Below are positions 5,746 to 58,475 of a stretch of DNA of 64,000 nt, in pieces. The stretch comes from Minisyncoccota bacterium (lineage in GTDB: Bacteria; Patescibacteriota; Minisyncoccia; Phycocordibacterales; UBA6065). The notes beneath the pieces are model-generated. The model was not told the DNA's origin. It saw only the letters and a list, made by a program, of their open reading frames with translations, and made no database searches. A program made the position numbers and the translations under genes. Position 1 is the stretch's first letter, and every line of letters starts with the position of its first letter. Location: assembly GCA_035438745.1 (NCBI GenBank), contig DAORIX010000001.1:3075-67074 (forward strand). The letters are read 5' to 3'.

Positions 5746-5818
5746 TGCTTGGACCCAGGTTCGAACTGGGGACCCTTCCCTCTTCAGGGGAATGCTCTAC
5801 CAACTGAGCTATCCAAGC
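5746..5818 (-). tRNA. tRNA-Phe (GAA)
   Basis: Minus-strand sequence GCTTGGATAGCTCAGTTGGTAGAGCATTCCCCTGAAGAGGGAAGGGTCCCCAGTTCGAACCTGGGTCCAAGCA folds as a canonical cloverleaf (7/4/5/5 bp stems, anticodon loop CTGAAGA, T-loop TTCGAAC); CCA not encoded. Confidence 0.9.
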
Positions 5819-6178: not shown

Positions 6179-6250
6179 GTGCCCCTGCCAAGAATTGAAC
6201 TTGGATCAGCTCGTTAGGAGTGAGCTATTCTATCCGTTGAACTACAGGGG
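6179..6250 (-). tRNA. tRNA-Arg (CCT)
   Basis: Minus-strand GCCCCTGTAGTTCAACGGATAGAATAGCTCACTCCTAACGAGCTGATCCAAGTTCAATTCTTGGCAGGGGCA; anticodon loop CTCCTAA with U33/A37; T-arm CCAAG-TTCAATT-CTTGG; one A:C mismatch in the anticodon stem. Confidence 0.8.
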
Positions 6251-6272
6251 CGATTTATTAAAACTACCACCT

Positions 6273-8981: not shown

Positions 8982-9054
8982 AGGAATACAGACATACTAT
9001 CAGAAAAACCCCAAAAATAAAGGTTTTAGCCTCGGAAGCACTAGAAAAATAATT

Positions 9055-13107: not shown

Positions 13108-13228
13108 ACTTCTTGTATCTCTATAAATACTGCTAATAATGTCTCATTATTATAGATGACACGTGAGCATATAACAATGTGCACAAATACACAGAAAACA
13201 TCCACCCGTTAAGGTGGATGTTTTCATG

Positions 13229-13584
13229 TTGTAAGCAAGCTTATAAGCCGAATTCTGTTCTTGTCGTAAAACAAGCGATAATTATTTATCTAGGATGTAC
13301 GTTGCCGTACACCTCAAGCGACTCTCCTCATGCACGAAGCATGAGGCACGGTCTTGCACTCAAGTAAGGGTTTTGCCGTTGCACCTCCTTTGTTACCAAA
13401 GGATCTCATCCCCGAAGGGATGCTGTTGTTCATTTCGAACACCAGCGTCTCTGTTCGCACCTCGAGTATTTCTCTCGATAGGTATTACCTACTACCCTGC
13501 TCCCGCTATTAAACGGGGAGTGTTCGGACTTTCCTCACCTCACATCTATTGCTAGATACGGGGCGCAATTATCAAGCTTACCTC
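13229..13584 (-). ncRNA. rnpB: RNase P RNA (rnpB), bacterial type; ends approximate
   Basis: Minus strand carries the P4 5' strand GAGGAAAGTCCGAAC and the P4 3' strand ACAGAATTCGGCTTATAAGC, plus GGTAACAAAGGAGGTG. P1 is GTAAGC/GCTTAC. A TATAAT -10 lies 7 nt upstream and a hairpin plus T-run terminator (13197..13224) downstream. The overlapping + ORFs 13179..13367 and 13295..13555 are spurious. Confidence 0.8.
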
Positions 13585-35912: not shown

Positions 35913-36737
35913 ATGGAAACTCCCGTAACAATACTCCGCCCAAAAAAAACCATCACCCTAAACGACCTCAAAGAACTCTGGCGCTACCGTGAGCTTCTTT
36001 ATTTTTTTACATGGCGCGATCTCAAAGTTCGATATAAACAAACCCTTATTGGTGCACTGTGGGCTATACTTCAACCTCTCGTTACGATGGTCATCTTTAC
36101 TGTATTTTTTGGTAAGTTGGCACAAATGCCATCTGACGGAGTTCCGTATCCAATCTTTGTTTACGTCGGTCTCCTTTTCTGGCAATTTTTTTCGAGCGCT
36201 CTCTCAGAAACATCTAATGTTCTTATTTCAAACCAAGCAATCATAACCAAAGTTTACTTTCCTCGCCTCATCTTGCCGTTATCGTCAGTACTTACCAAAT
36301 TTGTTGATTTTGCAATTGCATCTCTCATCCTTATTGGAATGATGGTCTATTACGGATATACGCCCCACCTTCTAGGGATTTTCATCATTCCTCTCCTTCT
36401 CCTCATTACCTTCATGGCTGCTGTTGGTAGTGGTCTATGTTTAGCATCAGTAAACGTTAAGTACCGAGATGTTAGATATGCTCTGCCCTTTTTTATACAA
36501 ATACTCCTTTTCCTTACCCCAGTTATTTATCCCGCATCAATTGCAGGCAACTATTCATGGCTCCTGGCGCTTAATCCAATGACGGGGGTAATTCAATCTG
36601 CTCGAGCGGCTCTCCTCGGAACAACACCAATCAACTGGCTCCTTCTCGCTATTTCATCCTTGGCGTGTTTGTGTCTTCTTATTATTGGTGGTATCTATTT
36701 CAAAAAAATAGAACGCTATTTTGCAGATATTTTATAA
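35913..36737 (+). CDS. wzm: ABC-2 type polysaccharide export permease (Wzm/TagG/KpsM family)
   Basis: 274 aa, 6 TM, N-terminal RELLYFFTWRDLKVRYKQTLIGALWAILQP signature of Wzm permeases. Confidence 0.8.
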   Translation: METPVTILRPKKTITLNDLKELWRYRELLYFFTWRDLKVRYKQTLIGALWAILQPLVTMVIFTVFFGKLAQMPSDGVPYPIFVYVGLLFWQFFSSALSETSNVLISNQAIITKVYFPRLILPLSSVLTKFVDFAIASLILIGMMVYYGYTPHLLGIFIIPLLLLITFMAAVGSGLCLASVNVKYRDVRYALPFFIQILLFLTPVIYPASIAGNYSWLLALNPMTGVIQSARAALLGTTPINWLLLAISSLACLCLLIIGGIYFKKIERYFADIL

Positions 36738-36741
36738 AAAA

Positions 36742-38001
36742 ATGGAACCCATAATTGAAGTAAAAAATGTCGGTAAAAAATACAACATAAAGCACTACCA
36801 AGGTGGCTATGTTGCGTTGCGTGATGTGATCATGAATATAGTCAAAAACCCTTTTCGCTTTGCAAAAGAAAAAGCAAAAGCAGTCACAGGAATAGGAACA
36901 AAGGAAGAGTTCTGGGCGCTCAAAGAAGCAAGCTTTAACATTTTCCAAGGAGAAGTGGTTGGAATCATCGGAAGAAATGGGGCCGGAAAATCAACTCTCC
37001 TCAAAATACTGACTGGCATTACACCTCCTACAACAGGAGAAATAAAAATGCGCGGTAGAGTCGCTTCCCTTCTTGAAGTCGGTACGGGGTTCCATCCAGA
37101 ACTTACTGGCCGAGAAAACATATTCCTCAACGGTGCAATTCTCGGAATGAAAAAAAGTGAAATCGCAAAAAACTTTGACTCGATTGTTGCGTTTGCTGAA
37201 ATAGAAAAATTCCTCGATACCCCAGTAAAATACTACTCAAGTGGAATGTATGTCCGTCTCGCCTTTTCAGTAGCCGCGCACATGGAACCAGACATACTCC
37301 TCGTGGATGAAGTACTCGCTGTGGGTGATGCAGAATTCCAAAAAAAGTGCCTTGGAAAAATGGAAGAGGTTACCAAGAAACAAGGCCGTACCATACTCTT
37401 TGTGAGTCACAACATGGCAGCAATTCAAAATCTCTGTAAAAAATGCATCCTCTTAGAAAAAGGAAAAATCAAAGCGGTTGGTGACACAGAAGACATTGTA
37501 AACCTCTACCTCCACAATTCCGAGTCAGAGGCAACAGAAAAAAAATGGGAGGGAGACAAGCGTCCAGGAAATGATGTTGTACGACTAAACCATGTTCGTC
37601 TTGTTGATGAAAATAAAGAAACCACGAGCTTTGTCTACTCAAATAAAAAATTTGGATTAGAAATATCCTACGAGGTTCTCAAATCTGGTTTTGCACCTCT
37701 TCCCAATGTTCACTTTTTCACAAATAAAGGGGAATATGCATTTATTAGCCACGCTGACGTAAAAGAAGAAAATGATAAAGTAGGAAAACACACGAAAACT
37801 GTGTGGGTCCCCGGAAATCTCCTTAATGAAGGTACCTACTCAATCGGTGTTGCTCTTTCAACTATGATTCCGCTCAACATACACCTCTATGAAAGAGAGC
37901 TTATTGTGTTCCAAGTGCTTGAGGATATTCACAGTGCAAAGAAACACGACTTCAATGTGCGTATACCGGGAGTTGTCCGCCCTCGACTAGTATGGGAATA
38001 A
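36742..38001 (+). CDS. wzt: polysaccharide ABC exporter ATP-binding protein with C-terminal carbohydrate-binding (Wzt_C-like) domain
   Basis: Walker A GRNGAGKST, signature YSSGM, Walker B LLVDEVLAVGD; an extra about 170 aa beta-rich C-terminal domain as in Wzt. Confidence 0.8.
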   Translation: MEPIIEVKNVGKKYNIKHYQGGYVALRDVIMNIVKNPFRFAKEKAKAVTGIGTKEEFWALKEASFNIFQGEVVGIIGRNGAGKSTLLKILTGITPPTTGEIKMRGRVASLLEVGTGFHPELTGRENIFLNGAILGMKKSEIAKNFDSIVAFAEIEKFLDTPVKYYSSGMYVRLAFSVAAHMEPDILLVDEVLAVGDAEFQKKCLGKMEEVTKKQGRTILFVSHNMAAIQNLCKKCILLEKGKIKAVGDTEDIVNLYLHNSESEATEKKWEGDKRPGNDVVRLNHVRLVDENKETTSFVYSNKKFGLEISYEVLKSGFAPLPNVHFFTNKGEYAFISHADVKEENDKVGKHTKTVWVPGNLLNEGTYSIGVALSTMIPLNIHLYERELIVFQVLEDIHSAKKHDFNVRIPGVVRPRLVWE

Positions 38002-38010
38002 CAAAAATCA

Positions 38011-38667
38011 ATGCTCAAAAAAATATACTATTCGATAAGAAACAAGATCCTAAAATATAAAATGGGATCTTACCCTGTGTGGAATATCTACGAGGGGCAC
38101 TTTAAAACGACGTACCGTTCTATACCGATGTTAAAATGCCCTTTTGACTATGTTATGTATCAAATGATTGTGTCAAAGATACAACCAGATCTCATTATTG
38201 AAATCGGAACAAACGTGGGAGGAACAACCTTATACCTGGCTGACATCCTCAACACCCTTGGCAAAGGAGAGATCCACACAATAGATATCGATGATCGAGT
38301 TAATCCCCTAGCACGATCTCATCCACGCATAAAATGCTTTAACGGCGGATGGAAAAACTACGATCTTTCAAATACAAAAAAATTCTCAAAGATACTCGTC
38401 ATTGATGATGCGTCGCATCAATTTAAAGACACATTAGAAGCAATGGAGAAGTTTTCGAACGTCGTGTCTATTGATTCTTATTTAATCATAGAGGACGGTA
38501 TTGTTACTCAACTCAAAAGAGACAAACAACTTGATGGAGGACCTCTTCGGGCAATAGAAAAATTTCTTGAAACAAACAACAACTTCCTCGTTGATGACTC
38601 TTACTGCAATATGTTTGGTAAAAACGCAACCTTCAACACGAAAGGTTACCTAAAAAGAGTTAAATAA
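38011..38667 (+). CDS. CmcI-family (cephalosporin hydroxylase-like) SAM-dependent sugar O-methyltransferase
   Basis: LIIEIGTNVGGTTLYLADIL SAM-binding block and overall CmcI/rhamnosyl-O-MT layout. Confidence 0.7.
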   Translation: MLKKIYYSIRNKILKYKMGSYPVWNIYEGHFKTTYRSIPMLKCPFDYVMYQMIVSKIQPDLIIEIGTNVGGTTLYLADILNTLGKGEIHTIDIDDRVNPLARSHPRIKCFNGGWKNYDLSNTKKFSKILVIDDASHQFKDTLEAMEKFSNVVSIDSYLIIEDGIVTQLKRDKQLDGGPLRAIEKFLETNNNFLVDDSYCNMFGKNATFNTKGYLKRVK

Positions 38668-40423: not shown

Positions 40424-42175
40424 ATGTGTGGAATACTCGCTATAACAGGGAAAAATACAAAAAAAATCGAGGATACAACTATCTCGAGCATGCTTTCTAC
40501 TCTCTCAAAACGAGGTCCTGATGAAAGTAGTTTCGAAAGAATAGGTCCTACGGTTCTTGGCCAAACAAGACTTGCTATCGTTGATCTCTCCGGTGGGCAC
40601 CAACCCATGCGTGACAACAAAGACAATCTTACACTCGTATTTAACGGTGAAATATATGGATATAAAGAAACTCGTGAAATCCTAGAGAAACGAGGTCATG
40701 TATTCTCAACTCACTCTGACACCGAAGTTATTCTCAAGGCATATTCAGAGTATGGAAAAGACTGTGTACTTCATCTCGATGGTATGTTTGCTTTTGCATT
40801 ATGGGACGAAACAAAACAAGAGCTTTTCGTGGCACGCGATCGTTTTGGCAAAAAACCCCTGTACTACACCTCTGTCGACCAGACCTTTTTTGCCGCTTCT
40901 GAAATAAAAACACTCTTTGCGACAGGGATTATTAAAGGAGAAATCGATCCTTCTGCACTCGATGACTATTTGCGTCTTATGTACATCCCTTCATACAAAA
41001 GTATCTATAAAAACATCGGGGTACTTCCCCCTGCACATGCGGGTATTGTTAAAAACGGCGCACTTGAAACATGGCAATACTGGAAATTAGAAAAAGCACC
41101 GTGTGAGGACTCCTACGAAGAAGCTAAAACAAAAATAAAAAAACTATTCAGTGATGCAGTAAAAAAAAGAATGGTCGCCGATGTTGAAGTTGGCTCACTC
41201 CTCTCAGGTGGAGTTGATTCGACAATCGTAACCCACGAGGCGCAAAAATACATGAATCGACCTATAAAAACTTTTGCGGTCGGGTACGGCACACACAAAA
41301 ACGAGCTCCCTTTTGCGAAAATTGCATCAGAAAAAATAGGCAGTGACCACTACACCCTCACTACTGAAGATTTTAATATGGAAGGTTTCCTTGAGGTTGT
41401 TGCGTACTTTGACGAACCCCATGCTGACTCATCGAACTACCCGCAGTCCTTTGTTTCAAAACTCGCTTCTTCAAAAGTGAAAGTCGCGCTTTCCGGTGAT
41501 GGCGCGGATGAATTTTTTATGGGTTATGGTTGGTACCAAAAGTACTGGCACACCCCTCTCCTTAAAAAAATATTCACCACTCCTTGGAGATCCTATACAG
41601 ACGTGATCGAAGTCTTCAAAACAAAAGACAGAAAAGGGCTTCTTGGTGCACAGAAAAACAACAAGGCTTTTGAAAAAAACGCTCTCAAAAACGCAAAAAA
41701 CAACACCGAAAAAATAAATGATTTTGACATACACATATACCTTCCTGGACAGCTACTATCAAAAGTAGACCGAACAAGCATGATGCACTCCTTGGAAATC
41801 AGATCCCCTTTTCTAGATACAAAACTTGCAGAATATGTCTACAATCTCCCTACTGCTTTTAAAATATCTAAAAATGCAAATAAAATAATACTCAAAGACA
41901 TCCTGTCTGAAACCTTTCCGAAAGATTTTGTTTACAGAAGGAAACAAGGCTTTGGTGCACCGATAGGAGCATGGCTCTCAAAAGAAGATCTACAAAAAAA
42001 ACTTGCCGAGATATTTAGTAACCAAAAACACCCGATGTTTAGTTATATAAAGTACGACAAAGCCTTACAAATCAAAGAAAAGGCTTTTCAGAATATGAAA
42101 ACATATGCCCCTCGATTGTGGTCATTGTTTTGTCTCGCTCTGTGGTTCGAACAACATCACAAACACCATGAATAA
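40424..42175 (+). CDS. asparagine synthase (glutamine-hydrolysing)-like amidotransferase
   Basis: N-terminal MCGI Ntn-glutaminase nucleophile; PP-loop SGGVDS in the synthetase domain; 583 aa. Confidence 0.8.
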   Translation: MCGILAITGKNTKKIEDTTISSMLSTLSKRGPDESSFERIGPTVLGQTRLAIVDLSGGHQPMRDNKDNLTLVFNGEIYGYKETREILEKRGHVFSTHSDTEVILKAYSEYGKDCVLHLDGMFAFALWDETKQELFVARDRFGKKPLYYTSVDQTFFAASEIKTLFATGIIKGEIDPSALDDYLRLMYIPSYKSIYKNIGVLPPAHAGIVKNGALETWQYWKLEKAPCEDSYEEAKTKIKKLFSDAVKKRMVADVEVGSLLSGGVDSTIVTHEAQKYMNRPIKTFAVGYGTHKNELPFAKIASEKIGSDHYTLTTEDFNMEGFLEVVAYFDEPHADSSNYPQSFVSKLASSKVKVALSGDGADEFFMGYGWYQKYWHTPLLKKIFTTPWRSYTDVIEVFKTKDRKGLLGAQKNNKAFEKNALKNAKNNTEKINDFDIHIYLPGQLLSKVDRTSMMHSLEIRSPFLDTKLAEYVYNLPTAFKISKNANKIILKDILSETFPKDFVYRRKQGFGAPIGAWLSKEDLQKKLAEIFSNQKHPMFSYIKYDKALQIKEKAFQNMKTYAPRLWSLFCLALWFEQHHKHHE

Positions 42176-45397: not shown

Positions 45398-46237
45398 ATG
45401 AAAATCTCCATTGTCACCCCGGCATATAATATGGAAAAGTTTATCTCTCACACCATAGAGAGCGTACTACGCCAGCGTGGTGATTTTGATCTAGAGTATA
45501 TTGTTGTAAACGATGGTTCAACCGACAAAACTGAAGAGATTATCAAAGGGTATCAAAACAAGCTCGACTCAAAAGAACTTAAACCGCTCTGCTCTTCACT
45601 ATCTCTTAAATATCACTACCAGACAAACAAAGGTATGTACGCTGCCATTAACAAAGGATTCTCGCTGGCAACAGGAGAAATCTTCGCGTGGCTAGGTGGA
45701 GACGACCTTTATTCTCCCGACACATCACTTGATACTGTCGCTACGTGGTTTACAAAAAACCCCACCGGTCTCTGGTTAAAAGGCATTTGCAGTTTTATAG
45801 ACGAACAAGGAAAAGAAATAAAAAAAGGAGTCCTAAAAACATACAACAGGGACTGGCTACAAAAAGGCATCTACGGAAGAGAAACATACTTTGTTGAACA
45901 AGAGAGTACCTTTTGGAGAAAAGAACTATGGGACAAGGTCTCACCGATCCCAGAAAACCTCAGATCAGCTGGAGACTACTGGCTCGGTATACAATTCGCT
46001 AAGCATGCACAACTTCATTCTATTCCAGCACATGTAACCTATTTCAGAATTCGCCCTGGACAAATAAGCTCACAAAATACAAAGTATAGAGATGAACAAA
46101 AAATAATTATGCCGAAAAGGAGCATGACGGCCTACAAAATGAGAGTCTTGTCTATACTCTACAATAAACTTCGCATAACCAACCCTCTTAAATACATACT
46201 TTTTAAATGTATGTTTCCTACCAAAAAACCTTTCTAA
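45398..46237 (+). CDS. family 2 glycosyltransferase
   Basis: ISIVTPAYNMEKFISHTIESVLRQ..VVNDGSTD and GGDDL motifs. Confidence 0.75.
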   Translation: MKISIVTPAYNMEKFISHTIESVLRQRGDFDLEYIVVNDGSTDKTEEIIKGYQNKLDSKELKPLCSSLSLKYHYQTNKGMYAAINKGFSLATGEIFAWLGGDDLYSPDTSLDTVATWFTKNPTGLWLKGICSFIDEQGKEIKKGVLKTYNRDWLQKGIYGRETYFVEQESTFWRKELWDKVSPIPENLRSAGDYWLGIQFAKHAQLHSIPAHVTYFRIRPGQISSQNTKYRDEQKIIMPKRSMTAYKMRVLSILYNKLRITNPLKYILFKCMFPTKKPF

Positions 46238-46242
46238 CCAAA

Positions 46243-47007
46243 ATGAAACAGAAACTTAAAACAATTCCCCTCTTGAAATATCTTGTGGTTGTCGCAAGGG
46301 TTTTCATAATTAAACCTAATTTTCTAAAACGAACATATGCACTTGCTGTATTTCTCAGTGATTACAGAAAGTACAAAAAACTTGAAAAAAATAATACGTA
46401 CCTCTTACAAACAACAGACCTTTTTCCCCGAATATACGACAAGACGGCGAACACTGATGTAGATCCTGTGTACTACCTCCAAGGATGTTGGTGTGCAAAG
46501 AAAATATTTGAAAACAAGCCCACTCGGCACTACGATATAGCCTCTCAAGCTCTTATGGTGGGTATTATCTCTCAATACGTACCAACAACAATGATTGATA
46601 TACGCCCTCTCTCAGTAACCCTACCTGAGCTCTCATTTATAAAGGGAGACATAACACATCTCCCTTTTAAGGACGGAGAAATATCGTCTGTCTCATCGAT
46701 ATGCGTTATTGAACACATAGGACTTGGACGCTATGGTGACCCTCTTGATCAGTTTGGTACCGAAAAAGCGGCACATGAACTTACTCGGATTTTAGCTAAA
46801 AACGGAAACCTCTATATTTCTGTACCCGTAGATAGTATTAATAAAACATACTTCAATGCACACCGGGCATTCACCAGAGAGTATGTGCTTTCCTTGTTTA
46901 AAAACCTACATCTCAAGGAAGAAAAGTACATCTATGGAAAAGAAATACATACATCGTATGATCCACGCAAAGGGTTCGGAACAGGCCTCTATCACTTCAG
47001 CAAATAA
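46243..47007 (+). CDS. class I SAM-dependent methyltransferase (DUF268-like)
   Basis: DIRPL..GDITHLPFKDGEISSVSSICVIEHIGLGRYGDP..NGNLYISVPV block; start at MKQKLK avoids overlap with the upstream GT2. Confidence 0.6.
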   Translation: MKQKLKTIPLLKYLVVVARVFIIKPNFLKRTYALAVFLSDYRKYKKLEKNNTYLLQTTDLFPRIYDKTANTDVDPVYYLQGCWCAKKIFENKPTRHYDIASQALMVGIISQYVPTTMIDIRPLSVTLPELSFIKGDITHLPFKDGEISSVSSICVIEHIGLGRYGDPLDQFGTEKAAHELTRILAKNGNLYISVPVDSINKTYFNAHRAFTREYVLSLFKNLHLKEEKYIYGKEIHTSYDPRKGFGTGLYHFSK

Positions 47008-47011
47008 TCAC

Positions 47012-47932
47012 ATGAAAAAAGTCATCATACTTAAAAACGGAGGTGGTGAACTTGCAAATCAATTATGGAACTACATAAGCATCTATGCGTATGGCATCGA
47101 AAAAAATAGATCCATAAAAAATCCTTCTTTTTTTGAATACCACTCGTATTTCAACTTCATAAAAGACGAGAGTGTTCTGACAAAATTCTTTTCTTTTTGG
47201 TTCAAAAATTTCTCAGGAAGACGCAGCAGCTTTCGTAGCCAACTATGGCGAAAGGTATATATTCTCTACGTATACACGCTGACTTTGTTCAACAAAAAAA
47301 ACACCATTTCTTCTGAAAACACAAAAGGAGAAAAAGTATACCTCTCGCCAACACAGGAATCTGTACCCGATGAAAACATCCAGACGCTCTACTTTACGGG
47401 GTGGCTCTTTAGAAACCCGCTCGGATTAGAAAAACATAGACAAAATATTGTGAAGGCATTTGCACCGGAAGAATCTATCACAAAAAAAGTAACTTCGATT
47501 ATACGCGACATAGACAATCGCTATGGAACAATAATCGGTGTACATATCCGCCAAGCAGATTACGCGTTCTTTAAAGATGGCAAATACTTACTGACCCAAG
47601 AAAGGGTACGAAAAGTTATTGACGAATATTGTGTGGCAAAAAATATACAAGTAGACAAAACCCTTTTTCTTATTACATCAGATGGACCCGTGCAAGAAAA
47701 TATATTTAAAGGACTCAACATTCATATCTCCAAAGAAAAAGCAGTGATTGATCTTTTCCTTCTCTCAAGTTGTGATGAAATTCTAGGTTCAGATTCGAGT
47801 TTTGGCGCCTTTGCCTCATGGTACGGCAACATACCCCACATCATCATGACAAAAGAAAACATGGACTGGGAATACTACAAAGACAAAACTACCTTCTTCC
47901 AAAATAAATACTCGACACTCGCCCATTACTAA
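47012..47932 (+). CDS. second GT11-like (alpha-1,2-fucosyltransferase family) glycosyltransferase, divergent
   Basis: Motif I variant KNGGGELANQLWNY and motif II variant HIRQADY with C-terminal SDSSFGAFASWYG. Start at 47012; the upstream 156 nt of the ORF-track call overlaps the MT gene. Confidence 0.6.
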   Translation: MKKVIILKNGGGELANQLWNYISIYAYGIEKNRSIKNPSFFEYHSYFNFIKDESVLTKFFSFWFKNFSGRRSSFRSQLWRKVYILYVYTLTLFNKKNTISSENTKGEKVYLSPTQESVPDENIQTLYFTGWLFRNPLGLEKHRQNIVKAFAPEESITKKVTSIIRDIDNRYGTIIGVHIRQADYAFFKDGKYLLTQERVRKVIDEYCVAKNIQVDKTLFLITSDGPVQENIFKGLNIHISKEKAVIDLFLLSSCDEILGSDSSFGAFASWYGNIPHIIMTKENMDWEYYKDKTTFFQNKYSTLAHY

Positions 47933-48070: not shown

Positions 48071-48104
48071 AAAAACACCCGTACATACGGGTGTTTTTAT
48101 TTTA
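48071..48104. terminator. bidirectional rho-independent terminator between the plus-strand glycan operon and the convergent GME gene
   Basis: aaaaacacccgta-cata-cgggtgttttt with T-run on both strands. Confidence 0.6.
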
Positions 48105-49121
48105 CTTACGAGATTTTTTCTTTTTCAAAACCTTTTTTGTTTTTTGTGGTTTTGATTTTTTCTGCTTTTGTACCTGCTCATTAATCCATTCATATGTTTT
48201 TGCCATCCCCTCTTTAAGAGGCCGACTTGGAGCCCAGTTCAACTTTTCTTTGATAAGTCGATTGTCAGAGTTACGTCCACGCACTCCGAGTGGACCAGGC
48301 ACATGATTGAGGCGAACTTTTTTTCCAGCAATAGAACTTACCATATGAACGAGATCGTTTATCGATATCATTTCATCTGAGCCAATATTTACCGGACCTG
48401 TAAAATCAGATCTCATGAGGCGCTCAACACCCTCGAGACATTCATCGATATAGAGAAAAGATCGAGTTTGTTCTCCATCACCCCACACTTCAACAACACC
48501 CCCATCTTTTGCCTCAGCAACCTTGCGACATGTCGCAGCAGGTGCTTTTTCCTTTCCACCATTCCATGTGCCCTCTGGACCAAAAACATTATGAAAACGT
48601 GCAATACGCACATTCATACAATGATTTCGAGCATATGCCATAAAAAGTCTTTCGCTAAATATTTTTTCCCAACCATATTCACTATCAGGAGCTGCGGGAT
48701 AAGCCGACTCTTCACTACAATCTGGATTGTTAGGATCAACCTGATTACGCTCAGGATAAATACACGCGGATGAGGAGTAAAAAAGAGTGCCCACACCAAC
48801 CTTTCGTGCTTGTTCAGCAATATTAAGGTTGATTGTCGCCGAATTGTGCATAATATCGGCATCGTGATTTCCTGTAAAAATATAACCCGCTCCTCCCATA
48901 TCTGCCGCAAGCTGATACACACGATCGAAAGAACGATTGAGAACCTTTGCGCACACTTTAACATCTCTCAAATCACCTACGACAAATTCATTGGCCTTTG
49001 AAACACCGTACTCGGGTTTTTTTAGATCAACACCACGCACCCAATATCCATCTTTTCTGAGTTTGGTCACAAGATGATTTCCAATAAATCCACCGGCGCC
49101 ACACACAAGAGCTCTTTTCAT
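48102..49121 (-). CDS. GDP-mannose 3,5-epimerase (GME) homolog with Lys-rich C-terminal tail
   Basis: Extended SDR matching the GME pattern: GAGGFIGNHL, LAADMGGAGYI, SSSACIYPE, GPEGTWNGGKEKAPAA, WGDGEQTRSF..IDEC, PVNIGSDEM, PGPLGVRGRNSDNRLIKEKL. The last 22 aa are QKQKKSKPQKTKKVLKKKKSRK. Confidence 0.75.
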   Translation of the reverse strand: MKRALVCGAGGFIGNHLVTKLRKDGYWVRGVDLKKPEYGVSKANEFVVGDLRDVKVCAKVLNRSFDRVYQLAADMGGAGYIFTGNHDADIMHNSATINLNIAEQARKVGVGTLFYSSSACIYPERNQVDPNNPDCSEESAYPAAPDSEYGWEKIFSERLFMAYARNHCMNVRIARFHNVFGPEGTWNGGKEKAPAATCRKVAEAKDGGVVEVWGDGEQTRSFLYIDECLEGVERLMRSDFTGPVNIGSDEMISINDLVHMVSSIAGKKVRLNHVPGPLGVRGRNSDNRLIKEKLNWAPSRPLKEGMAKTYEWINEQVQKQKKSKPQKTKKVLKKKKSRK

Positions 49122-49207: not shown

Positions 49208-50764
49208 TTATTTCTTCCTCCCCACAATATACAAATGGGTCGCCACAGCGTCTGAACCAGGTATATACATAAAGAGGTAATCGAGATATTTGAGAGGACC
49301 CAAAACCAACATAAAAACATGAGCAAGAAATGGAGCAATTTTTCGTGAACCAAAAGAAAAAATAACACCCAGCCAGTATGCCAGAAACATGAGGAGTGTT
49401 GACCACGGACCTGAACGAACTCCCGCCTCTACAATTTCAAGATCAGAAAACATATGTTTGAGTCCTGAAATAGTCCATCTATTAAAATCGTCAGGTGATG
49501 CATGGTACGGATGCATAAAAGGAGCACTCACATACACATAACCACCCGGCTTCACAATTCTCACCATCTCCCGAGCAACAAGGTGTGCATCAGGCACATG
49601 TTCGAACAAAGACTCAGACACTGCAGCGTCTACTGAATTATCCTTAAAAGGCAACCGTGTCGCATCAGATACAATATCGACTTCGGGGAAAGGAAAAATA
49701 TCGACGTTTATAAATTCATCCCCCAGTCGTTCTGGTCCGGAACCCACATCTACAACTGTTGCACCCCGTGGAACCTTTTTGAGAATTATACGTGGGCCGT
49801 TCACCAACATGAGTACCGGACAAAAAACATGCCAAATAGAATAGTAAATCTTTGGAAACTGTTTCAAAAAAGACTTCAGCCAATTAACTCCAGACTCATG
49901 CTGATCGCTATTGCGCTCATACACCACTCTTTCAATCAAAATAGGGCGACGCGAATCATCAATAATAAAAGTCTCATGAAGAGAACACGCGAGTCCATTA
50001 TCGCTCACCTTAAAGTCCCCCTTACAAAAAGGACAACAGACAAGATGAAGGTGATTGTCTACCTCGCGAGCACGAGGTTTTTTCAAATTAAGAAGCCTAT
50101 CTGCGATAAGTAATTGTATCGCCTTGAAACCATCTCTATAGCGAATCTTTTTACCCTCTTTTGCGTCCCGCGGTGTGTGCGAAATAGGAACCTCTACAAT
50201 ACTGTGCCCCTCGCGCAACAATGCTGCTGTAAAAAGTAATTCGGACTCAAATTGACCAGGGATAAATAGTTTTTTTGAAGACTGAGGAAAAAGCTTATAG
50301 CATGTCCATACGTCAGTCAGGCGTGCTCCGTATAAAAAGTTAATGAGTTGCGTTATGAACCAGACACCCAGACGCTGAGCATAAAAACCTTTTCTCTTTT
50401 CGTGATGTAAATTGCGTGAACCGTATACAACCTGAGATCCCGTACTTAGAGCCTCGACAAAAAGAGGAATTTCCTTGGGATGATACTCCAGGTCAGCGTC
50501 CTGAATTAAAATATAATCACCCGTTGCTTCCTCGAGGCCTCGAGTCACCGCTGTGCCCTTGCCACCATTTTTCTCTTGATGGATTGTAATAATACGAGAA
50601 GCGTACTTCTTCAGTATGTCTTTGGTTCCGTCTGTAGAAGCATCATCGACAACAATAACCTCTTTTGACCATCCAGGAATGGAGACGGCAAAAACACGAG
50701 AAAGAAGTTCTTCTATTGTTTTTTCTTCATTAAAACACGGTATAACTATTGAAATCTTTTTCAT
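49208..50764 (-). CDS. fusion protein: DPM1/GtrB-like GT2 (polyprenyl-phosphate sugar synthase-like) + Cys4 zinc ribbon + class I SAM methyltransferase
   Basis: N-terminal ISIVIPCFNEE..VVDDASTDGT..IQDADLEYHP (DPM1-like), middle CCPFCKG...C, C-terminal VVDVGSGPERL..VDAAVSESLFEHV..VKPGGYVYVS (Methyltransf_11). Confidence 0.75.
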   Translation of the reverse strand: MKKISIVIPCFNEEKTIEELLSRVFAVSIPGWSKEVIVVDDASTDGTKDILKKYASRIITIHQEKNGGKGTAVTRGLEEATGDYILIQDADLEYHPKEIPLFVEALSTGSQVVYGSRNLHHEKRKGFYAQRLGVWFITQLINFLYGARLTDVWTCYKLFPQSSKKLFIPGQFESELLFTAALLREGHSIVEVPISHTPRDAKEGKKIRYRDGFKAIQLLIADRLLNLKKPRAREVDNHLHLVCCPFCKGDFKVSDNGLACSLHETFIIDDSRRPILIERVVYERNSDQHESGVNWLKSFLKQFPKIYYSIWHVFCPVLMLVNGPRIILKKVPRGATVVDVGSGPERLGDEFINVDIFPFPEVDIVSDATRLPFKDNSVDAAVSESLFEHVPDAHLVAREMVRIVKPGGYVYVSAPFMHPYHASPDDFNRWTISGLKHMFSDLEIVEAGVRSGPWSTLLMFLAYWLGVIFSFGSRKIAPFLAHVFMLVLGPLKYLDYLFMYIPGSDAVATHLYIVGRKK

Positions 50765-50771
50765 AGAAACT

Positions 50772-51590
50772 CTAGTGATAAAAAGGTGTGGTTTGAGAAA
50801 TATAATCAATCTGAAGACCCCTCTTAACCGCTACGAAATTTGTAAGAGTAAAGCGCTCTTGATCGGGGAAATACTCGACCCTCTCAAGAGAACGGGATTT
50901 CAAACGATACATATCGTACCCATACTGCTCAAAAAATCTCAAGAAGTCACGTAGAAAAAATCGAGACTCCAAAGTTGCCCCAGAAAATTCATACTGTACC
51001 ATGTCGACCATACCTTGTTTGAACATATTTTCTGCGCCTTTCAAAACAAAAAACTCATAACCCTCAACATCCACCTTCAAGAAATCTACATGGCGAATGT
51101 TGTGATCCTTTACATACTCATCGAGAGTAGTCACCTGAACCATAAGTGCTTTTTCTTTTTTATCTTGTTCGTGAATATCAAACAAAGAATTAAAAACCGT
51201 CTTTGAATGACGAAATAGTTGCATCTGGGTCTTTTTCTCACCCACTGCACAATTATTTAAAATGGCTCTTTTTTTAAAGTCCTTCGTATTCGTTTGTAAT
51301 TGATCAAACGCTCTCACGTCTGGTTCAAAAGCATGAACAACCACATCAGGATTGCTCGAGAGAATTTTTCTAGAGTAATCCCCTATATTCGCACCGACAT
51401 CAAAAACCACCTTTAGTTTTCCCTGTAATTTCTCGAGAAGCCAGTATTCACCGTTTGTCTCGCGGTCAAAAGCATTATCCCCATAACAAAAATCAATGTA
51501 TTTACTACAAAACAAAAAAAGCAGTCGAGAGTATCGTGGGTTATTGCGATTAATAAAAATCTTTACGAGGTTTTTTTTAAAAAAATTCAT
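50772..51590 (-). CDS. FkbM-family methyltransferase
   Basis: VFDVGANIGDYS SAM-binding block and FkbM-domain layout. Confidence 0.7.
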   Translation of the reverse strand: MNFFKKNLVKIFINRNNPRYSRLLFLFCSKYIDFCYGDNAFDRETNGEYWLLEKLQGKLKVVFDVGANIGDYSRKILSSNPDVVVHAFEPDVRAFDQLQTNTKDFKKRAILNNCAVGEKKTQMQLFRHSKTVFNSLFDIHEQDKKEKALMVQVTTLDEYVKDHNIRHVDFLKVDVEGYEFFVLKGAENMFKQGMVDMVQYEFSGATLESRFFLRDFLRFFEQYGYDMYRLKSRSLERVEYFPDQERFTLTNFVAVKRGLQIDYISQTTPFYH

Positions 51591-54118: not shown

Positions 54119-55207
54119 ATGTCTTATTATACCAGATTTGATGATATACTAAAATACAAAAAATATATGCTGATTTCATACATAAATACAAAAAATATAT
54201 ACCCCCACGACAGACATCTTATCGACGGACTTAGAGAAAATGGCCACACCGTTCTCGATATAAACGAAAACACTCCAGGACTAAAAAAATACTCTCATCT
54301 TATTAAAATAGTTCTCGAGCATAAGAAAAAAAGCGATCTGCTCATTATAGGTTTCACCTCACCAATTTTTGCCATCATTGCAAGCTTTTTTTCTCGAAAA
54401 ATTGTATACAATGCGGTATCTTCACAATATGAGGCAAATGTCATATCACGTGATGTCAAAAAATATTCCCTAGCAGCACTCAAGTGGTGGGTTCTCGATA
54501 TTTTGTCATTCCATCTTCCTGCAAAAATATTACTCGAAAGCCCTTCTCAGATTGAATTTATACACCGATTTTTTTTCGTAAAAAAAGAAAAGCTCATTAA
54601 ATCATGGACAGGGGTCAATGAGAAAGAATTTTTCTTTGAGCCTCAGTACACAAAAGAAAAAACGTTCACAGTACTCTTCAGGGGTAGATTTCTCGCGGAA
54701 TCAGGAATTGACACAGTTATTAAAACAGCAAAAATTCTCGAGGAAAAAGGAATCAATTTTAGAATTATAGGTGCAGGTCATCTCTATAGAGAAGTTAATG
54801 CTCTTATGAAAAACCTTGCACCGAAAAATATAGAAATGATTAACGAAACACTCCCTATCGAAACACTTCGAGAAAAAATGCTTCAATGTCACATTAGCCT
54901 CGGACAAATGGCTGATCATCCTCGCCTCTTGAGAACTCTTCCATGTAAACTCTATGAAACACTTGCGCTCGGCTTACCCTATCTCACTGGACGAAACAGA
55001 GCTGTACTCGAACTCCTCACGGAAAACGTAACCTGTGCATGTGCTAACCCAGGAGATCCGTATGATTTAGCAGATAAAATACTTTATCTAAAAAACAACC
55101 CGGAAACACTAGAAAAAATAGCCTCTCAGGGATTCGCTTTGTATAAAAACACACTCACATCAAAAAAACTTGCTCAGTCAGTAACTGAACAACTCTCAAT
55201 CAAATAA
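54119..55207 (+). CDS. GT4-like glycosyltransferase
   Basis: C-terminal GT-B donor domain (FRGRFLAESGIDTVIKTAKIL...YETLALGLPYLTG). Confidence 0.6.
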   Translation: MSYYTRFDDILKYKKYMLISYINTKNIYPHDRHLIDGLRENGHTVLDINENTPGLKKYSHLIKIVLEHKKKSDLLIIGFTSPIFAIIASFFSRKIVYNAVSSQYEANVISRDVKKYSLAALKWWVLDILSFHLPAKILLESPSQIEFIHRFFFVKKEKLIKSWTGVNEKEFFFEPQYTKEKTFTVLFRGRFLAESGIDTVIKTAKILEEKGINFRIIGAGHLYREVNALMKNLAPKNIEMINETLPIETLREKMLQCHISLGQMADHPRLLRTLPCKLYETLALGLPYLTGRNRAVLELLTENVTCACANPGDPYDLADKILYLKNNPETLEKIASQGFALYKNTLTSKKLAQSVTEQLSIK

Positions 55208-55208
55208 T

Positions 55209-56381
55209 ATGAAAATATGCGTACTCAGCACAATAGACTGTAGAGGGGGTGCTGCAAAAGTAGCATGGGAACTCCGGGAAAACCTCAAAAAAGAAGGTCA
55301 TCAGGTGGCCACGTTTGTACGTTATAAATATTCAGACGAAGCAGATGTTTTTGTGATACCACGAAAACGCTACCAAGATTGGCTTGTAAAAATTTTTGCA
55401 AATGACCTGATCTTTGCACGCTCAAAATATATCCTTAAAACAAAAGAATTCCTCGAGGCAGATATCATTCACTGTCACAACCTTCATAGCAACTTCTTTG
55501 ATCTTGCTCTACTCAAACACATGTCAAAACTCAAACCGGTAATATGGACAATGCATGATCTATGGGCAATTACAGGCTATGCAAGCGATAGTGTTACACG
55601 GAAAAATCCAAATAAAAAAAGGTTTCTACTGTATCTGTGGGATAATACTCAAAACTTACTAGAGAAAAAATCGAAGATATACAGAAACAGCAAACTTACC
55701 ATTATCGCTGTATCTGATTGGATGAAAAATGAGGTACAGAACAGTGTACTTGGTATGCAAAAAATTATCCGTATTTATAACGGAATAGACACATCTGTGT
55801 TTACAAAAAAAGATAAAATAAAAACGAGACAAAAACTAGGATTACCGTTAGACAAAAAAATAGTAGCCTTTGGAACGAAAGGTTGGCATACCGTAGAAAA
55901 AATCATCGAAACAACACCAAAAGACTCCAACCTGTACTTTCTGTCTATAGGAAACTCAAATGTAAAAACCTTGTATCCTCACTACAAATCAACTGAACAC
56001 TTAACTGACAAGAACCGCGTAGCGGAATATCTAGGCGCAGCAGATGTCCTTTTGTACCCAACACAAGGCGACTCTTTTGGTCTCACTGCTGCCGAAGCGA
56101 TAGCATGCGGTACACCCGTTGTCGCATACGCAATTGATGCGCTCCCAGAGATTATTAATCATACAAAAAACGGCTACCTTGCGATACCCGATTCACAAGA
56201 AGACTTAAAACGTGGTATGGAATACTTTATAAACCTACCCCAAAATCAGTACGCTTTTCTAAGTTCTGAAATGTCTACCGATATCGCAAATCGCTTTTCA
56301 AACAAAAAAATGTATGAGGAATATAAAAAACTCTACAACGAAATACTCTCAAAGAAAGAAAACCCTACTTCTTTAAAATAA
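55209..56381 (+). CDS. GT4 glycosyltransferase
   Basis: GT-B with C-terminal FGLTAAEAIACGTPVVAYAIDALPEII block. Confidence 0.75.
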   Translation: MKICVLSTIDCRGGAAKVAWELRENLKKEGHQVATFVRYKYSDEADVFVIPRKRYQDWLVKIFANDLIFARSKYILKTKEFLEADIIHCHNLHSNFFDLALLKHMSKLKPVIWTMHDLWAITGYASDSVTRKNPNKKRFLLYLWDNTQNLLEKKSKIYRNSKLTIIAVSDWMKNEVQNSVLGMQKIIRIYNGIDTSVFTKKDKIKTRQKLGLPLDKKIVAFGTKGWHTVEKIIETTPKDSNLYFLSIGNSNVKTLYPHYKSTEHLTDKNRVAEYLGAADVLLYPTQGDSFGLTAAEAIACGTPVVAYAIDALPEIINHTKNGYLAIPDSQEDLKRGMEYFINLPQNQYAFLSSEMSTDIANRFSNKKMYEEYKKLYNEILSKKENPTSLK

Positions 56382-56994
56382 ACGAGTAACCAAGAGGATA
56401 CCGCTCACCAACACGAGGCCTTAACTTTAAAAAGAGAGCGTCCGTAGCATAATAGAAAGGAAACAAGAAAACACGCACCAATCGAGGAAACGAGAGAACA
56501 ATAGTATTAAAATTTACGGAAAAAGGACCCCTCCCTACAGTGACGATTTGTACCTGAGAAAAGCCCGCCGACTTAAAAATCCTTTCGAGAGCTTCCTTTG
56601 TATATCTAAAATAGTCATGCGGATCAGGATGGTACTGTATAAGAAAAGGTACAAATCCAACAAGCGTTCCACCCTTCTTCAAAATACGATGAACTTCTGC
56701 AACTAAAAAAGCATGGTTATAGACGTGTTCCAAAACATTTGCCAACACCACACTATCAGCATATCCGTCAGCGTAAGGTAGTTTATCTTTTTCAAAGTCC
56801 ACCTTGGAAAGTAGTCCGTCTACGATTTCAACGGACGTGACAGACTCTTGTTTAAGATAGTCAAAATAATCAGGCTTACGGGCACCGCCAACATCAACAA
56901 CTTTTCCTGAAACAGAAAATTGTTTGAAACTTTGATTCATGAGTATCCTCAAAAGTGATTGACCTTGGTATACCTTACGCAGTGTAAAAAACAT
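56365..56994 (-). CDS. class I SAM-dependent methyltransferase (Methyltransf_11-like)
   Basis: VVDVGGARKP SAM motif I and VLEHV..LKKGGTLV post-I/II blocks; true start may be 56940. Confidence 0.7.
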   Translation of the reverse strand: MFFTLRKVYQGQSLLRILMNQSFKQFSVSGKVVDVGGARKPDYFDYLKQESVTSVEIVDGLLSKVDFEKDKLPYADGYADSVVLANVLEHVYNHAFLVAEVHRILKKGGTLVGFVPFLIQYHPDPHDYFRYTKEALERIFKSAGFSQVQIVTVGRGPFSVNFNTIVLSFPRLVRVFLFPFYYATDALFLKLRPRVGERYPLGYSFILKK

Positions 56995-57009: not shown

Positions 57010-58041
57010 TTAATGAATGACCTGCACAAGTCTATCTCTAAGCTTGTCCAAACTATGCTGCTTGAGCACAACATTTCGCAAAATCGCTCCTTGAGCAACC
57101 CGAGAAGGTTTGTCCATGAGGATAATCCTCTCAAGTTTAGAAGCGAGCTCAGCAACATCACCTTCGGTGAAAATAAAACCATCGTCAATGAGTCCGCGTA
57201 AATTTTCATTAGAAGCAAGAACAAGACTCTCACACGCCATGGCTTCAAAAATAGTCTTATCGTACATCCCCGATGAAGATAAGTTTACGAACACCTCATG
57301 AGCGTTGTACACCCCGGGAGTTTGATCGTTTGGGATGCCGGGCAAAAAAGTGACCTTATCGGAAACACCCTCCTTGTGCGCCATGTATCTCAAGGAATCT
57401 GCATACTCTCGATCTTTTGGTAGAGGATCTCCAATAATAGTCGCATAAAAAGGCACTTTTTTTGTAGCAAGGATACCGAGCGCTCGTATTAAAACATCAG
57501 GTTTCTTAACCGGAGCAATACGAGCTAGAAATAAAATCGAGTGAGGTTTTCTGTCTTTTCTATACGGCGCAAAAATAGATGTATCTACACCAACAGGCAT
57601 AAGTATGGTTTTTTTAAATTTTGCCGTATATGAGTATTTTGATGTACAAAAAATATTCTTACAGAAAAGCGAAACAATATTAGTAAACTCACTACCAGAG
57701 TGATGATTTCTCCACATGTATATTGGCTTCCGTAAGAGTTTCCACAAAAAACCACCCAGAAGGACATACTCCTCGTTCATGTGAACAAATACAGCGTCAT
57801 ACTCTTTTCTTTTTGAAAAAATATACGTATAGAAATTTTTTAAATACTTCCACTTTGACTGTCCTCCTTCTTTACCCAAAGAAAGTACAGAAACATTGTG
57901 CGGTAAATCATACTCTCCTTTTTCGAGACATATAACCGTAATCGCTTTATACACTGAAGCAAAATCAAAAATCCAACGGTGAAAAAAACCCAGCACAGGA
58001 TCATTTTTATTAACCTTTTGAGTTATGATGAGTAATTTCAT
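57010..58041 (-). CDS. GT4 glycosyltransferase
   Basis: Glycos_transf_1 domain (SGMYDKTIFEAMACESLVLASN). Confidence 0.75.
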   Translation of the reverse strand: MKLLIITQKVNKNDPVLGFFHRWIFDFASVYKAITVICLEKGEYDLPHNVSVLSLGKEGGQSKWKYLKNFYTYIFSKRKEYDAVFVHMNEEYVLLGGFLWKLLRKPIYMWRNHHSGSEFTNIVSLFCKNIFCTSKYSYTAKFKKTILMPVGVDTSIFAPYRKDRKPHSILFLARIAPVKKPDVLIRALGILATKKVPFYATIIGDPLPKDREYADSLRYMAHKEGVSDKVTFLPGIPNDQTPGVYNAHEVFVNLSSSGMYDKTIFEAMACESLVLASNENLRGLIDDGFIFTEGDVAELASKLERIILMDKPSRVAQGAILRNVVLKQHSLDKLRDRLVQVIH

Positions 58042-58475
58042 ATCGGTTTTCTAGTGGAAACATTTTCTGGAAATATAATATAGCGATAAGCAAAAAAACT
58101 TACCCCCGCCATGATTCCGATAGTAAGCACTTGTGCAAAAACATACCACACGTGAAGTATCTCCACGAAAAAATACAAAAACCCCGTAGTAGCAACCATA
58201 CTCACAGCGTACAACACGCTATAGAAAAAAAGTTGTTTATGCACCGTTGCTGTATTTGTATCACGAAAAGTAAATTTTTTCTGAAGCAAAAAACGCACAA
58301 TAAATGATGTTGTGAGCGCAATGACTGCTGATGCTAGATAATAAACATGAAAATATTCTGTGAGCACAAAAAGCAAACCAATATCAAGAAACGATGAAAA
58401 ACCTCCCGAAAAAATATAACGAACAACAAGAGTGTCCGTAGCTAGAGCGATTATGTTTTTAAAAAAAGAAATCAT
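58038..58475 (-). CDS. GtrA-family small membrane protein (polysaccharide synthesis/flippase-associated)
   Basis: 145 aa, 4 TM, N-terminal RYIFSGGFSSFLDIGLLFVLTE block typical of GtrA. Confidence 0.7.
   Translation of the reverse strand: MISFFKNIIALATDTLVVRYIFSGGFSSFLDIGLLFVLTEYFHVYYLASAVIALTTSFIVRFLLQKKFTFRDTNTATVHKQLFFYSVLYAVSMVATTGFLYFFVEILHVWYVFAQVLTIGIMAGVSFFAYRYIIFPENVSTRKPI

Follow-up and report, generated by a model that had tools for sequence, protein, structure and literature searches.

Why should a protein that appears to load a sugar onto a lipid carrier also carry a methyltransferase? The question is raised by a gene in a 64,000-nucleotide stretch of DNA from a Minisyncoccota bacterium (contig DAORIX010000001.1 of assembly GCA_035438745.1, positions 3,075 to 67,074 of the forward strand). 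This whole stretch is called the window here, and all coordinates are counted from its first letter. At 49208..50764 on its minus strand, the window encodes a family 2 glycosyltransferase (GT2) fused through a ribbon to a methyltransferase that depends on S-adenosylmethionine (SAM). We propose that this fusion is the synthase of a Gtr/Arn-type extracytoplasmic glycosylation system with a built-in enzyme that tailors the sugar on its carrier, a reading to which we give a probability of about one half. Judging from its relatives, the most likely task of the protein is to charge a membrane lipid carrier with a sugar, and its gene neighbourhood suggests an undescribed on-carrier sugar-methylation step in cell-surface glycosylation.

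The fusion protein and its domains

To which class does the GT2 domain belong? The initial annotation had seen a DPM1/GtrB-type signature in it, quoting two motifs that are indeed present, VVDDASTDGT at residues 38-47 and IQDADLEYHP at residues 87-96. Broader comparisons bear this out. In a single-sequence search of the PDB, PfDPMS (6e-21) and ArnC (3e-16) came ahead of all other structures. A subfamily profile built from 38 members ranked PfDPMS (3.7e-33), ArnC (6e-30) and GtrB (9e-26) highest and scored Leloir GT2 enzymes lower, with chondroitin synthase at 7e-24 and TarS at 4e-18. For DPMS and ArnC the profile alignment covers the whole domain, including the A-loop R..G.SK; with GtrB it ends at position 169. 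By fold, Foldseek ranks 1-22 in the PDB are occupied by ArnC, DPMS or GtrB only (5.6e-17 to 3.8e-12), and GpgS comes next. By profile and by fold, then, the domain sorts with DPMS, ArnC and GtrB and not with ordinary Leloir enzymes.

The catalytic residues tell a similar story. The metal, donor and acceptor residues of PfDPMS are E12, D39, D89/D91, R117, R202 and K208 (PMC5526996). Their counterparts here, E13, D41, D89/D91, R117, R199 and K205, fall on positions that are invariant in GT2 homologues (E13, D41, D89-A-D91, G115-S-R117, R199 and G204-K205). Across 114 full-length homologues of the fusion the DAD, GSR and R..GKK motifs are near-invariant, with QDADLEY kept in 113 and GSR in every one. 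Compared with a DADLQ-type motif, residue 93 is Glu for Gln; residue 94 is Tyr where PfDPMS has His, and the equivalent of PfDPMS K178 is Glu, so the sugar specificity of the domain probably differs from that of PfDPMS. On the basis of homology and of the synteny described below, the assignment of the GT2 domain as a polyprenyl-phosphate sugar synthase is well supported.

Synthases of this type differ in how they are held at the membrane: GtrB and ArnC each have two transmembrane helices after the catalytic domain, PfDPMS has four and DPM1 type II has none. In the fusion such helices are absent right behind the catalytic domain, and the ribbon and methyltransferase stand there instead. They are not a universal need, as PfDPMS without its transmembrane domain is still targeted to membranes (PMC5526996). 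The GT2 domain itself has two predicted amphipathic interface helices in the AlphaFold2 model, at residues 128-145 (hydrophobic moment 1.31) and 212-225.

The mechanically called open reading frame runs from a TTG start (49208..50809, minus strand), and the conserved start is the ATG at 50764, which gives a protein of 518 amino acids. Its parts follow each other in the order GT2, Trm112-like ribbon, helical N-extension and compact class I SAM methyltransferase, the latter with a hydrophobic helical hairpin before its last strand (Table 1). Pfam matches Glycos_transf_2 (PF00535) at residues 5-161 (E 2e-35), Methyltransf_11 at residues 364-412 (E 1.1e-12; 48.8 bits against a cutoff of 21.2), and also Methyltransf_23 (residues 330-432) and Methyltransf_8. 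An AlphaFold2 model of the whole fusion reached a mean predicted local distance difference test score (pLDDT) of 85.9 and a predicted template-modelling score (pTM) of 0.61; the C-terminal module modelled by itself reached 89 and 0.87. The computational checks proposed at the outset all favoured the initial annotation, and neither of the two findings that it had named as refuting, an ordinary Leloir GT2 domain or a methyltransferase without SAM-binding residues, was seen. A sequencing or frameshift artefact was considered and rejected: more than 100 homologues have the same architecture.

Is the methyltransferase a working enzyme? A full Methyltransf_11 domain had been claimed for it. It is a genuine class I methyltransferase, but the match spans only model positions 47-95 of 95, the second half, so the domain is real but compact. 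The residues expected to bind SAM are in place: motif I (D339-x-G341-S-G343-P344), D355, D363, D367-A368, E384 and H389 are invariant or nearly so, and so is the cluster H418, H421, D425, D426 and R429 in the fusion family. The N-extension, with the consensus EHESGINWLKSFLKQFPKLYY.IWH.FCPVLMLVNGPR, is highly conserved and partly amphipathic (hydrophobic moments 1.6-1.8), and its invariant columns include H289, G292, W295, K297, K301, Q302, W311, N322, G323 and P324. The nearest solved folds are the class I methyltransferases AtmM, RlmA(I), the Trm112-Hvo_0019 complex, SpnF and RebM. AtmM and RebM are sugar O-methyltransferases, and RlmA(I) also has an N-terminal zinc domain. In NCBIfam, neither the fusion nor the methyltransferase module has a specific model.

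The ribbon in front of this enzyme had been described as a Cys4 zinc ribbon. A Trm112-like ribbon is predicted there, but its ligands are of the CPxC and CxxH kind (C244-P-F-C247 and C260-S-L-H263, plus an extra C243), so that it is not strictly Cys4, and part of the family has lost them. Across the ribbon region, the profile of stand-alone relatives of the methyltransferase matches the Trm112/UPF0434 ribbons 2kpi, 2js4, 2hf1 and 2pk7, and some of these relatives bear a precomputed Pfam Trm112p match. CxxC...Cxx[C/H] is kept in 67 of the 114 full-length homologues; the full ligand set is absent in the other 47, and among the 40 of these that were listed, about 18 have CxxC...C-x2-D and about 22 have no ribbon Cys at all. 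P245, D269, R273 and P274 are invariant throughout. The metal ligands of the ribbon are therefore dispensable within the fusion family.

The two helices of the hairpin (453-469 and 477-498) have mean Kyte-Doolittle hydropathies of 1.56 and 1.29, and it is strongly conserved both in the fusion family and in stand-alone relatives. In the models a final strand follows at residues 510-517, and the hairpin is thus an insertion between the last two strands, not a C-terminal tail. From the models, we propose that it could be a membrane-embedded anchor or a lid over a lipid substrate.

Could the module then be mainly structural, an anchor replacing the GtrB helices or a device for oligomerisation or SAM sensing, with no methyl group ever placed on the sugar? 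In favour of this, the GT2 domain brings no transmembrane anchor, strongly hydrophobic segments occur in the protein only inside the methyltransferase (453-498), and the ribbon can do without its metal ligands in about a quarter of the family. However, motif I, the acidic residues and the H418-R429 cluster (H418, H421, D425, D426 and R429) stay invariant across homologues that are 57-96% identical, and stand-alone copies of the module adjoin synthases that already have transmembrane anchors. We consider a purely structural role improbable.

Gene partners, relatives and the stand-alone module

How widespread is the fusion? At E<=1e-5, 1255 database proteins match it. The best 120 clusters are 57-96% identical to the query and nearly all full-length, and where their source taxa are named these are all Patescibacteria (Paceibacterota, Parcubacteria, Taylorbacteria, Sungbacteria), a few being labelled 'bacterium' only. 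Their functional annotation is limited to 'glycosyltransferase'-type names. The fusion is a highly conserved Patescibacteria family, abundant yet undescribed. Our search of the full-text literature turned up neither an account of a synthase fused to a methyltransferase nor one of methylated polyprenyl-phosphate monosaccharides. This agrees with the suggestion that the arrangement had not been reported, although the fusion is common in databases, and the search of other genomes that the initial annotation called for brought up a whole family. A scan of GTDB genomes with the fusion alignment gave, among the matches listed, almost only GT2-only relatives; it exposed the stand-alone GT2 subfamily and the alternative fusions described below.

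In the window, the presence of a GtrA-family protein and a PMT_2 GT-C glycosyltransferase, noted from the sequence at the start, was confirmed by Pfam. The GT-C loop residues D45, G46, Y47 and E49 are invariant, and the GT-C family profile has no sequence match in the PDB. We retrieved six other fusion loci for comparison. In all six, the gene directly upstream codes for a PMT_2 GT-C enzyme and overlaps the start of the fusion by 4-38 nucleotides, and in five of them a GtrA gene lies within 5 kilobases (kb). Together with GT2-GT-C fusions in relatives, this synteny means that the three-component GtrA/synthase/GT-C reading, already put forward in the initial annotation, is well supported by sequence comparison.

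The neighbourhood is conserved beyond these partners. Two loci, L085 and L086, contain a block in the order GT4, GtrA, GT4, methyltransferase (about 210 amino acids), GT4, GT-C, fusion that corresponds to the block in the window, and the 209-amino-acid paralogue of the fused methyltransferase core holds the same position in both. The window differs from them in three respects: a pair of GT4 genes is inserted, an FkbM-family gene is inserted, and a GDP-mannose 3,5-epimerase homologue follows the fusion. The FkbM insertion is specific to the window, being absent at this place in L001 and L083-L086; in L002 an FkbM gene lies about 1 kb away on the other strand. The plus-strand GT4 pair and the FkbM insertion suggest local gene gain in the genome of the window. 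At the edge of the glycan block stands a TrwB/VirD4/HerA-like coupling ATPase (62155-63993, minus strand). A gene of this type also flanks the block in L001 and L083, so synteny extends past the glycan genes.

Other Patescibacteria have joined the same GT2 to different partners. At L003 (10699-12456, plus strand), a GT2 that is 59% identical is fused to a GT-C-like multi-transmembrane domain (PMT_2 3.6e-8, with an EGDAPSY loop), and a stand-alone hairpin-bearing methyltransferase (9184-10092, minus strand) and a second GT-C gene (7759-9198) lie alongside. At L009 (9908-12352, plus strand), the GT2 is fused to a GT-C-like domain of about 580 residues with at least nine hydrophobic segments.

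These observations bear on a second alternative, that the protein is a terminator of the WsaE/WbdD kind, in which a Leloir GT2 would add the last sugar, the methyltransferase would cap the chain, and the proximity of GT-C and GtrA genes would be coincidence. WsaE does join a methyltransferase with GT2 domains in an S-layer glycan pathway that depends on an ATP-binding cassette (ABC) transporter, and the matching transporter type is present in the window. But the start-stop overlap with the GT-C gene at six loci out of six and the existence of GT2-GT-C fusions speak against coincidence, and the GT2 domain ranks with DPMS, ArnC and GtrB ahead of TarS and chondroitin synthase. We give such a terminator little chance.

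A methyltransferase has been fused to this GT2 subfamily more than in one form. A second, very abundant GT2-methyltransferase family is found in Acidobacteriota, Elusimicrobiota and Planctomycetota (L042, L046, L051, L070, L075), and its methyltransferase is unrelated at the sequence level to that of the window (BLASTP E 0.075). A single ancient fusion event was rejected on this ground. At L070 the fusion is followed by a GT-C-like gene. Two Acidobacteriota-type fusions, L167 (6001-7401) and L168 (6001-7524), are flanked by a DUF92 membrane protein and a sugar-phosphate nucleotidyltransferase, and the role of this type may differ from that of the Patescibacteria fusion. Our literature search found no paper describing it.

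The GT2 subfamily and the methyltransferase module also occur separately. Stand-alone copies of the GT2, of about 230 amino acids, are found in many phyla and in DPANN archaea. As a separate protein of about 285 amino acids, the module (ribbon, helices, core and hairpin) forms 278 representative clusters at E<=1e-30. To see its neighbours, we surveyed 68 distinct metagenomic loci, 20 of which had at least 10 kb of flank, using an alignment of 8 methyltransferase sequences for the scan; one of 50 sequences was too diverse. In 12-13 of the 20 well-flanked loci the module has, within 6 kb, a GtrB-type GT2 (310-315 amino acids, with a DxDLQ motif and a C-terminal transmembrane segment), nearly always on the same strand; whether the count is 12 or 13 hinges on accepting DADLE. 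In total, 424 kb contained 21 such genes and a 1.24-Mb control contained 1, which makes them about 58-fold enriched.

What else travels with the module? Of the 68 loci, 22 have a large multi-transmembrane protein immediately beside it, and 19 of the 20 with good flanks contain such a protein. Iterative searches with jackhmmer gave no link for these proteins, but profile-profile comparison did: 16 of the adjacent ones, once aligned, match the GT-C family of the window with 97.1% probability (hhalign, E 5.7e-11), in a match that takes in the acidic loop motif. Pfam neighbour counts (L087-L166, e.g. L091 2690-4102 and L087 4556-5989), which list further methyltransferases (13 of 76) and B12-binding radical SAM proteins (9 of 76), show no GT-C signal around the module, since its GT-C-like neighbours are too divergent for PMT_2. 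In two loci, L169 (a contig of a Bacteroidales metagenome-assembled genome, MAG) and L170 (from a protein named after a Taylorbacteria MAG), the methyltransferase is surrounded by an Arn-like gene set, with DegT aminotransferases, an acetyltransferase, a GHMP kinase, a GT2 of about 314 amino acids and a large membrane protein. Such neighbours hint at heavily tailored, possibly C-methylated, amino sugars.

The glycan locus and the proposed pathway

The fusion is embedded in a single glycan locus that spans 32.6-62 kb of the window and holds Gmd, a second epimerase/reductase, DegT, Wzm, Wzt, a CmcI-type O-methyltransferase, GT2, GT11, an AsnB-like gene and many GT4 enzymes. Table 1 lists the main features.

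Table 1. Positions in the window of the domains of the fusion and of the genes around it.
Feature	Position (strand)	Residues	Evidence or remark
Wzm	35913..36737 (+)		Pfam ABC2_membrane 4.4e-18
Wzt with C-terminal carbohydrate-binding domain	36721..38001 (+)		ABC_tran 2.5e-22, Wzt_C 7e-8
CmcI/rhamnosyl O-methyltransferase-type gene	38011..38667 (+)		directly after wzt
GDP-mannose 3,5-epimerase homologue (close relative of the plant enzyme)	48102..49121 (-)		PDB 2c59 E 2.8e-101, next family 1e-30
Fusion: final beta strand (THLYIVGRKK) of the methyltransferase fold, with stop codon	49208..49264 (-)		AlphaFold2 strand 510-517; family-conserved
Fusion: hydrophobic helical hairpin	49265..49408 (-)	453-500	AlphaFold2 helices 453-469 and 477-498, pLDDT >86
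Fusion: compact class I SAM-methyltransferase core	49409..49774 (-)	331-452	Pfam, motif I, AlphaFold2
Fusion: helical N-extension of the methyltransferase	49775..49933 (-)	278-330	AlphaFold2 helices 279-329
Fusion: Trm112/UPF0434-like beta ribbon	49934..50044 (-)	241-277	AlphaFold2 strands 251-276, profile matches
Fusion: GT2 catalytic domain	50081..50764 (-)	1-228	PF00535, fold, invariant residues
FkbM-family methyltransferase	50772..51590 (-)		PF05050 6.9e-21, TIGR01444 1.7e-30; between GT-C gene and fusion
PMT_2 GT-C glycosyltransferase, 459 amino acids, GDDGYYE loop	51587..52966 (-)		PF13231 3.4e-7, above cutoff
Two GT4 genes within the minus-strand block	54119..56381 (+)		absent at the equivalent position in L085 and L086
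Methyltransferase of 209 amino acids, paralogue of the fused core, without ribbon	56365..56994 (-)		BLASTP 30% identity, E 3e-14
GtrA-family small membrane protein	58038..58475 (-)		PF04138 1.2e-17

Taken together, Wzm, Wzt with its Wzt_C domain and the CmcI-type gene are the hallmark of a glycan that depends on an ABC transporter and carries a methylated chain end. The epimerase homologue lies 86 nucleotides downstream of the fusion and has a lysine-rich tail at its C-terminus (…QKQKKSKPQKTKKVLKKKKSRK). It may supply the donor sugar, as GDP-L-galactose or GDP-L-gulose. In L002, the gene directly upstream of the GT-C gene codes for a close homologue (phmmer E 3e-178), and these two placements suggest that the glycan contains L-galactose or L-gulose. 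Elsewhere in the locus, a DUF268-like methyltransferase gene (46207-47007, plus strand) overlaps a GT11-like fucosyltransferase gene (46856-47932, plus strand) by about 150 nucleotides, and a DUF268 gene recurs close to the fusion in L002, L084, L085 and L086. An asparagine-synthase-like amidotransferase (40424-42175, plus strand), also found in L086, is reminiscent of WsfA in the S-layer glycan cluster of Paenibacillus alvei. Far from the glycan genes, the window also encodes a class A bacterial RNase P RNA (13228-13584, minus strand; 116 bits) and two tRNAs (5746-5818 and 6180-6251, both minus strand).

How might the parts work together? We envision four steps. At the cytoplasmic face of the membrane, the GT2 domain would move a sugar from a nucleotide sugar, for which GDP-mannose or GDP-L-galactose from the adjacent epimerase are candidates, to polyprenyl phosphate; this step is well supported by homology. 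The methyltransferase, held at the membrane by its hairpin and amphipathic helices, would then methylate the lipid-attached sugar. The GtrA-family protein would flip the methylated lipid-linked sugar, as its family membership and the synteny suggest. Finally, the translationally coupled PMT_2 GT-C enzyme would hand the sugar to an acceptor outside the membrane, possibly as the side branch named in the initial annotation. The acceptor would likely be the glycan of this GT4-rich, Wzm/Wzt-exported locus, or else a surface protein; the gene content of the locus points to an ABC-transporter-dependent polymer.

Why place methylation on the carrier? SAM is cytoplasmic and GT-C transfer takes place outside the membrane, so a methyl group on the sugar must be added before flipping. 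In addition, the methyltransferase is tied to synthases and GT-C enzymes by two independent routes, fusion and neighbourhood, and its conserved hairpin and amphipathic helices would suit a membrane-embedded substrate. That other phyla have joined an unrelated methyltransferase to this GT2 subfamily also argues for a link between synthase and methyltransferase. On-carrier methylation, which the initial annotation had suggested, would to us be the most economical mechanism, and the neighbourhood data make it more plausible than it was then.

The glycan locus itself offers a further alternative. The GT2 may feed the GT-C enzyme while the methyltransferase acts on another cytoplasmic substrate, either the non-reducing end of a polymer on undecaprenyl diphosphate, as a cap read by Wzt, or a nucleotide sugar; the fusion would then merely co-localise two steps of one glycan pathway. 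The window does encode Wzm and a Wzt with Wzt_C, a type of domain that in known systems recognises a terminal methyl or phosphomethyl cap (PMC2943079, PMC11127046), and the methyltransferase fold comes with no match specific to a substrate. However, capping would more obviously fall to the CmcI-type O-methyltransferase directly after wzt, in unrelated loci the module accompanies GtrB-type synthases and GT-C-like proteins, and the hydrophobic hairpin suggests a membrane-embedded substrate. We regard another substrate as unlikely, if less so than the structural and terminator explanations.

Several observations weigh against methylation on the carrier or against the synthase assignment beneath it. 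The locus holds at least four further methyltransferases beside the carbohydrate-binding module of Wzt, and methylation could serve chain capping. The nearest methyltransferase folds are generic class I enzymes at template-modelling scores of only 0.4-0.5 and at most 19% identity, so that fold matches do not fix the substrate, and the pTM of the whole model leaves the interdomain geometry uncertain. In the GT2 domain, the phosphate-binding residues R131 and S135 of PfDPMS have no confident counterpart (R124/R131 and T138 are candidates that do not align reliably), and the Glu at the K178 equivalent is a departure from PfDPMS. Among relatives, the stand-alone short GT2 has PMT_2 as an immediate neighbour in only 8 of 93 cases, and neither GT-C nor GtrA was seen near the Acidobacteriota-type fusions at the two loci L167 and L168.

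Known systems and the meaning of the fusion

Bacteria commonly use three-component systems to decorate their surface glycans and teichoic acids once these have been exported. To our knowledge, the sugar transferred is unmodified or deacylated in every version described. In the GtrA/GtrB/GtrC systems of Shigella serotype conversion, CsbB/GtcA/YfhO, GacI-L and Klebsiella side-branch addition, a synthase, a GtrA protein and a GT-C enzyme likewise occur together (PMC11127046), and their GtrB-type synthases share with the fusion a DADLQ-type motif and the A-loop. Unlike them, the fusion has a ribbon and a hairpin-bearing methyltransferase in place of transmembrane helices after the catalytic domain, its metal motif is DADLEY and not DADLQD, and the GT-C enzyme of the window is a PMT_2 relative without a detectable sequence match to solved structures. 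The described GtrA/B/C systems contain no methylation step.

The Arn pathway (ArnC-ArnD-ArnE/F-ArnT) is close in another respect: a lipid-linked sugar is made, modified on its carrier at the cytoplasmic face, flipped and used by a GT-C enzyme. ArnC is among the closest relatives of the fusion GT2 in sequence and structure. Before flipping by ArnE/F, ArnD deformylates the ArnC product on undecaprenyl phosphate, and it is a direct precedent for tailoring at the pathway position proposed for the fused methyltransferase. The differences are that ArnD removes a formyl group instead of adding a methyl group, is not fused to the synthase, and works with the flippase ArnE/F where the fusion has a GtrA candidate. 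The loci of the stand-alone module are themselves Arn-like in having DegT, an acyltransferase, a GT2 of about 314 amino acids and a large membrane protein. The GT2 domain finds its best sequence match in DPMS, as the type III enzyme PfDPMS, with which it has the catalytic residues and the predicted interface helices in common; DPM1 type II, like the GT2 domain, has no transmembrane anchor of its own. The fusion differs from DPMS in its bacterial context, its methyltransferase, residues 93 and 94 and the K178 equivalent.

Two other precedents concern the methyl group. Like the fusion, WsaE (Geobacillus S-layer glycan) and WbdD (Escherichia coli O8/O9a) combine methyltransferase and glycosyltransferase function in an ABC-transporter-dependent locus. 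They differ from it in that Leloir domains elongate a chain linked to undecaprenyl diphosphate, the proteins are soluble, the domain order is another, and they have no link to GT-C or GtrA; the fusion GT2, by contrast, groups with polyprenyl-phosphate glycosyltransferases and has a conserved GT-C partner. In haloarchaea, dolichyl oligosaccharides are transiently methylated while bound to the lipid, on the cytoplasmic side, according to work by Lechner et al. 1985 as cited in PMC11407970. As summarised there, this concerns oligosaccharides in archaeal N-glycosylation and an enzyme that is not fused to the synthase. The methyl group proposed here might stay on the surface glycan for good, or it might be a ticket that licenses flipping or GT-C recognition, as in the transient halobacterial case.

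The system is probably more general than the Patescibacteria fusion alone. The hairpin methyltransferase is fused in Patescibacteria and stand-alone elsewhere, with source names that include Bacteroidales, Marinimicrobia and Sedimentisphaerales MAGs. We suggest, more tentatively than for the fusion itself, that methylated polyprenyl-phosphate sugars could be widespread, unrecognised lipid-linked donors and that the hairpin methyltransferase could be a fourth component of Gtr/Arn-type systems. Methylation on the carrier by a built-in enzyme would bring a new chemical step to such systems and account for the placing of O-methyl sugars on the outside of the cell, which lacks SAM. Next to nothing is known of the surfaces of Patescibacteria, a huge group of host-dependent and mostly uncultured bacteria. 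The fusion is among their best-conserved envelope enzymes (57-96% identity in the homologues listed), and it may thus provide a handle on the chemistry of their surface.

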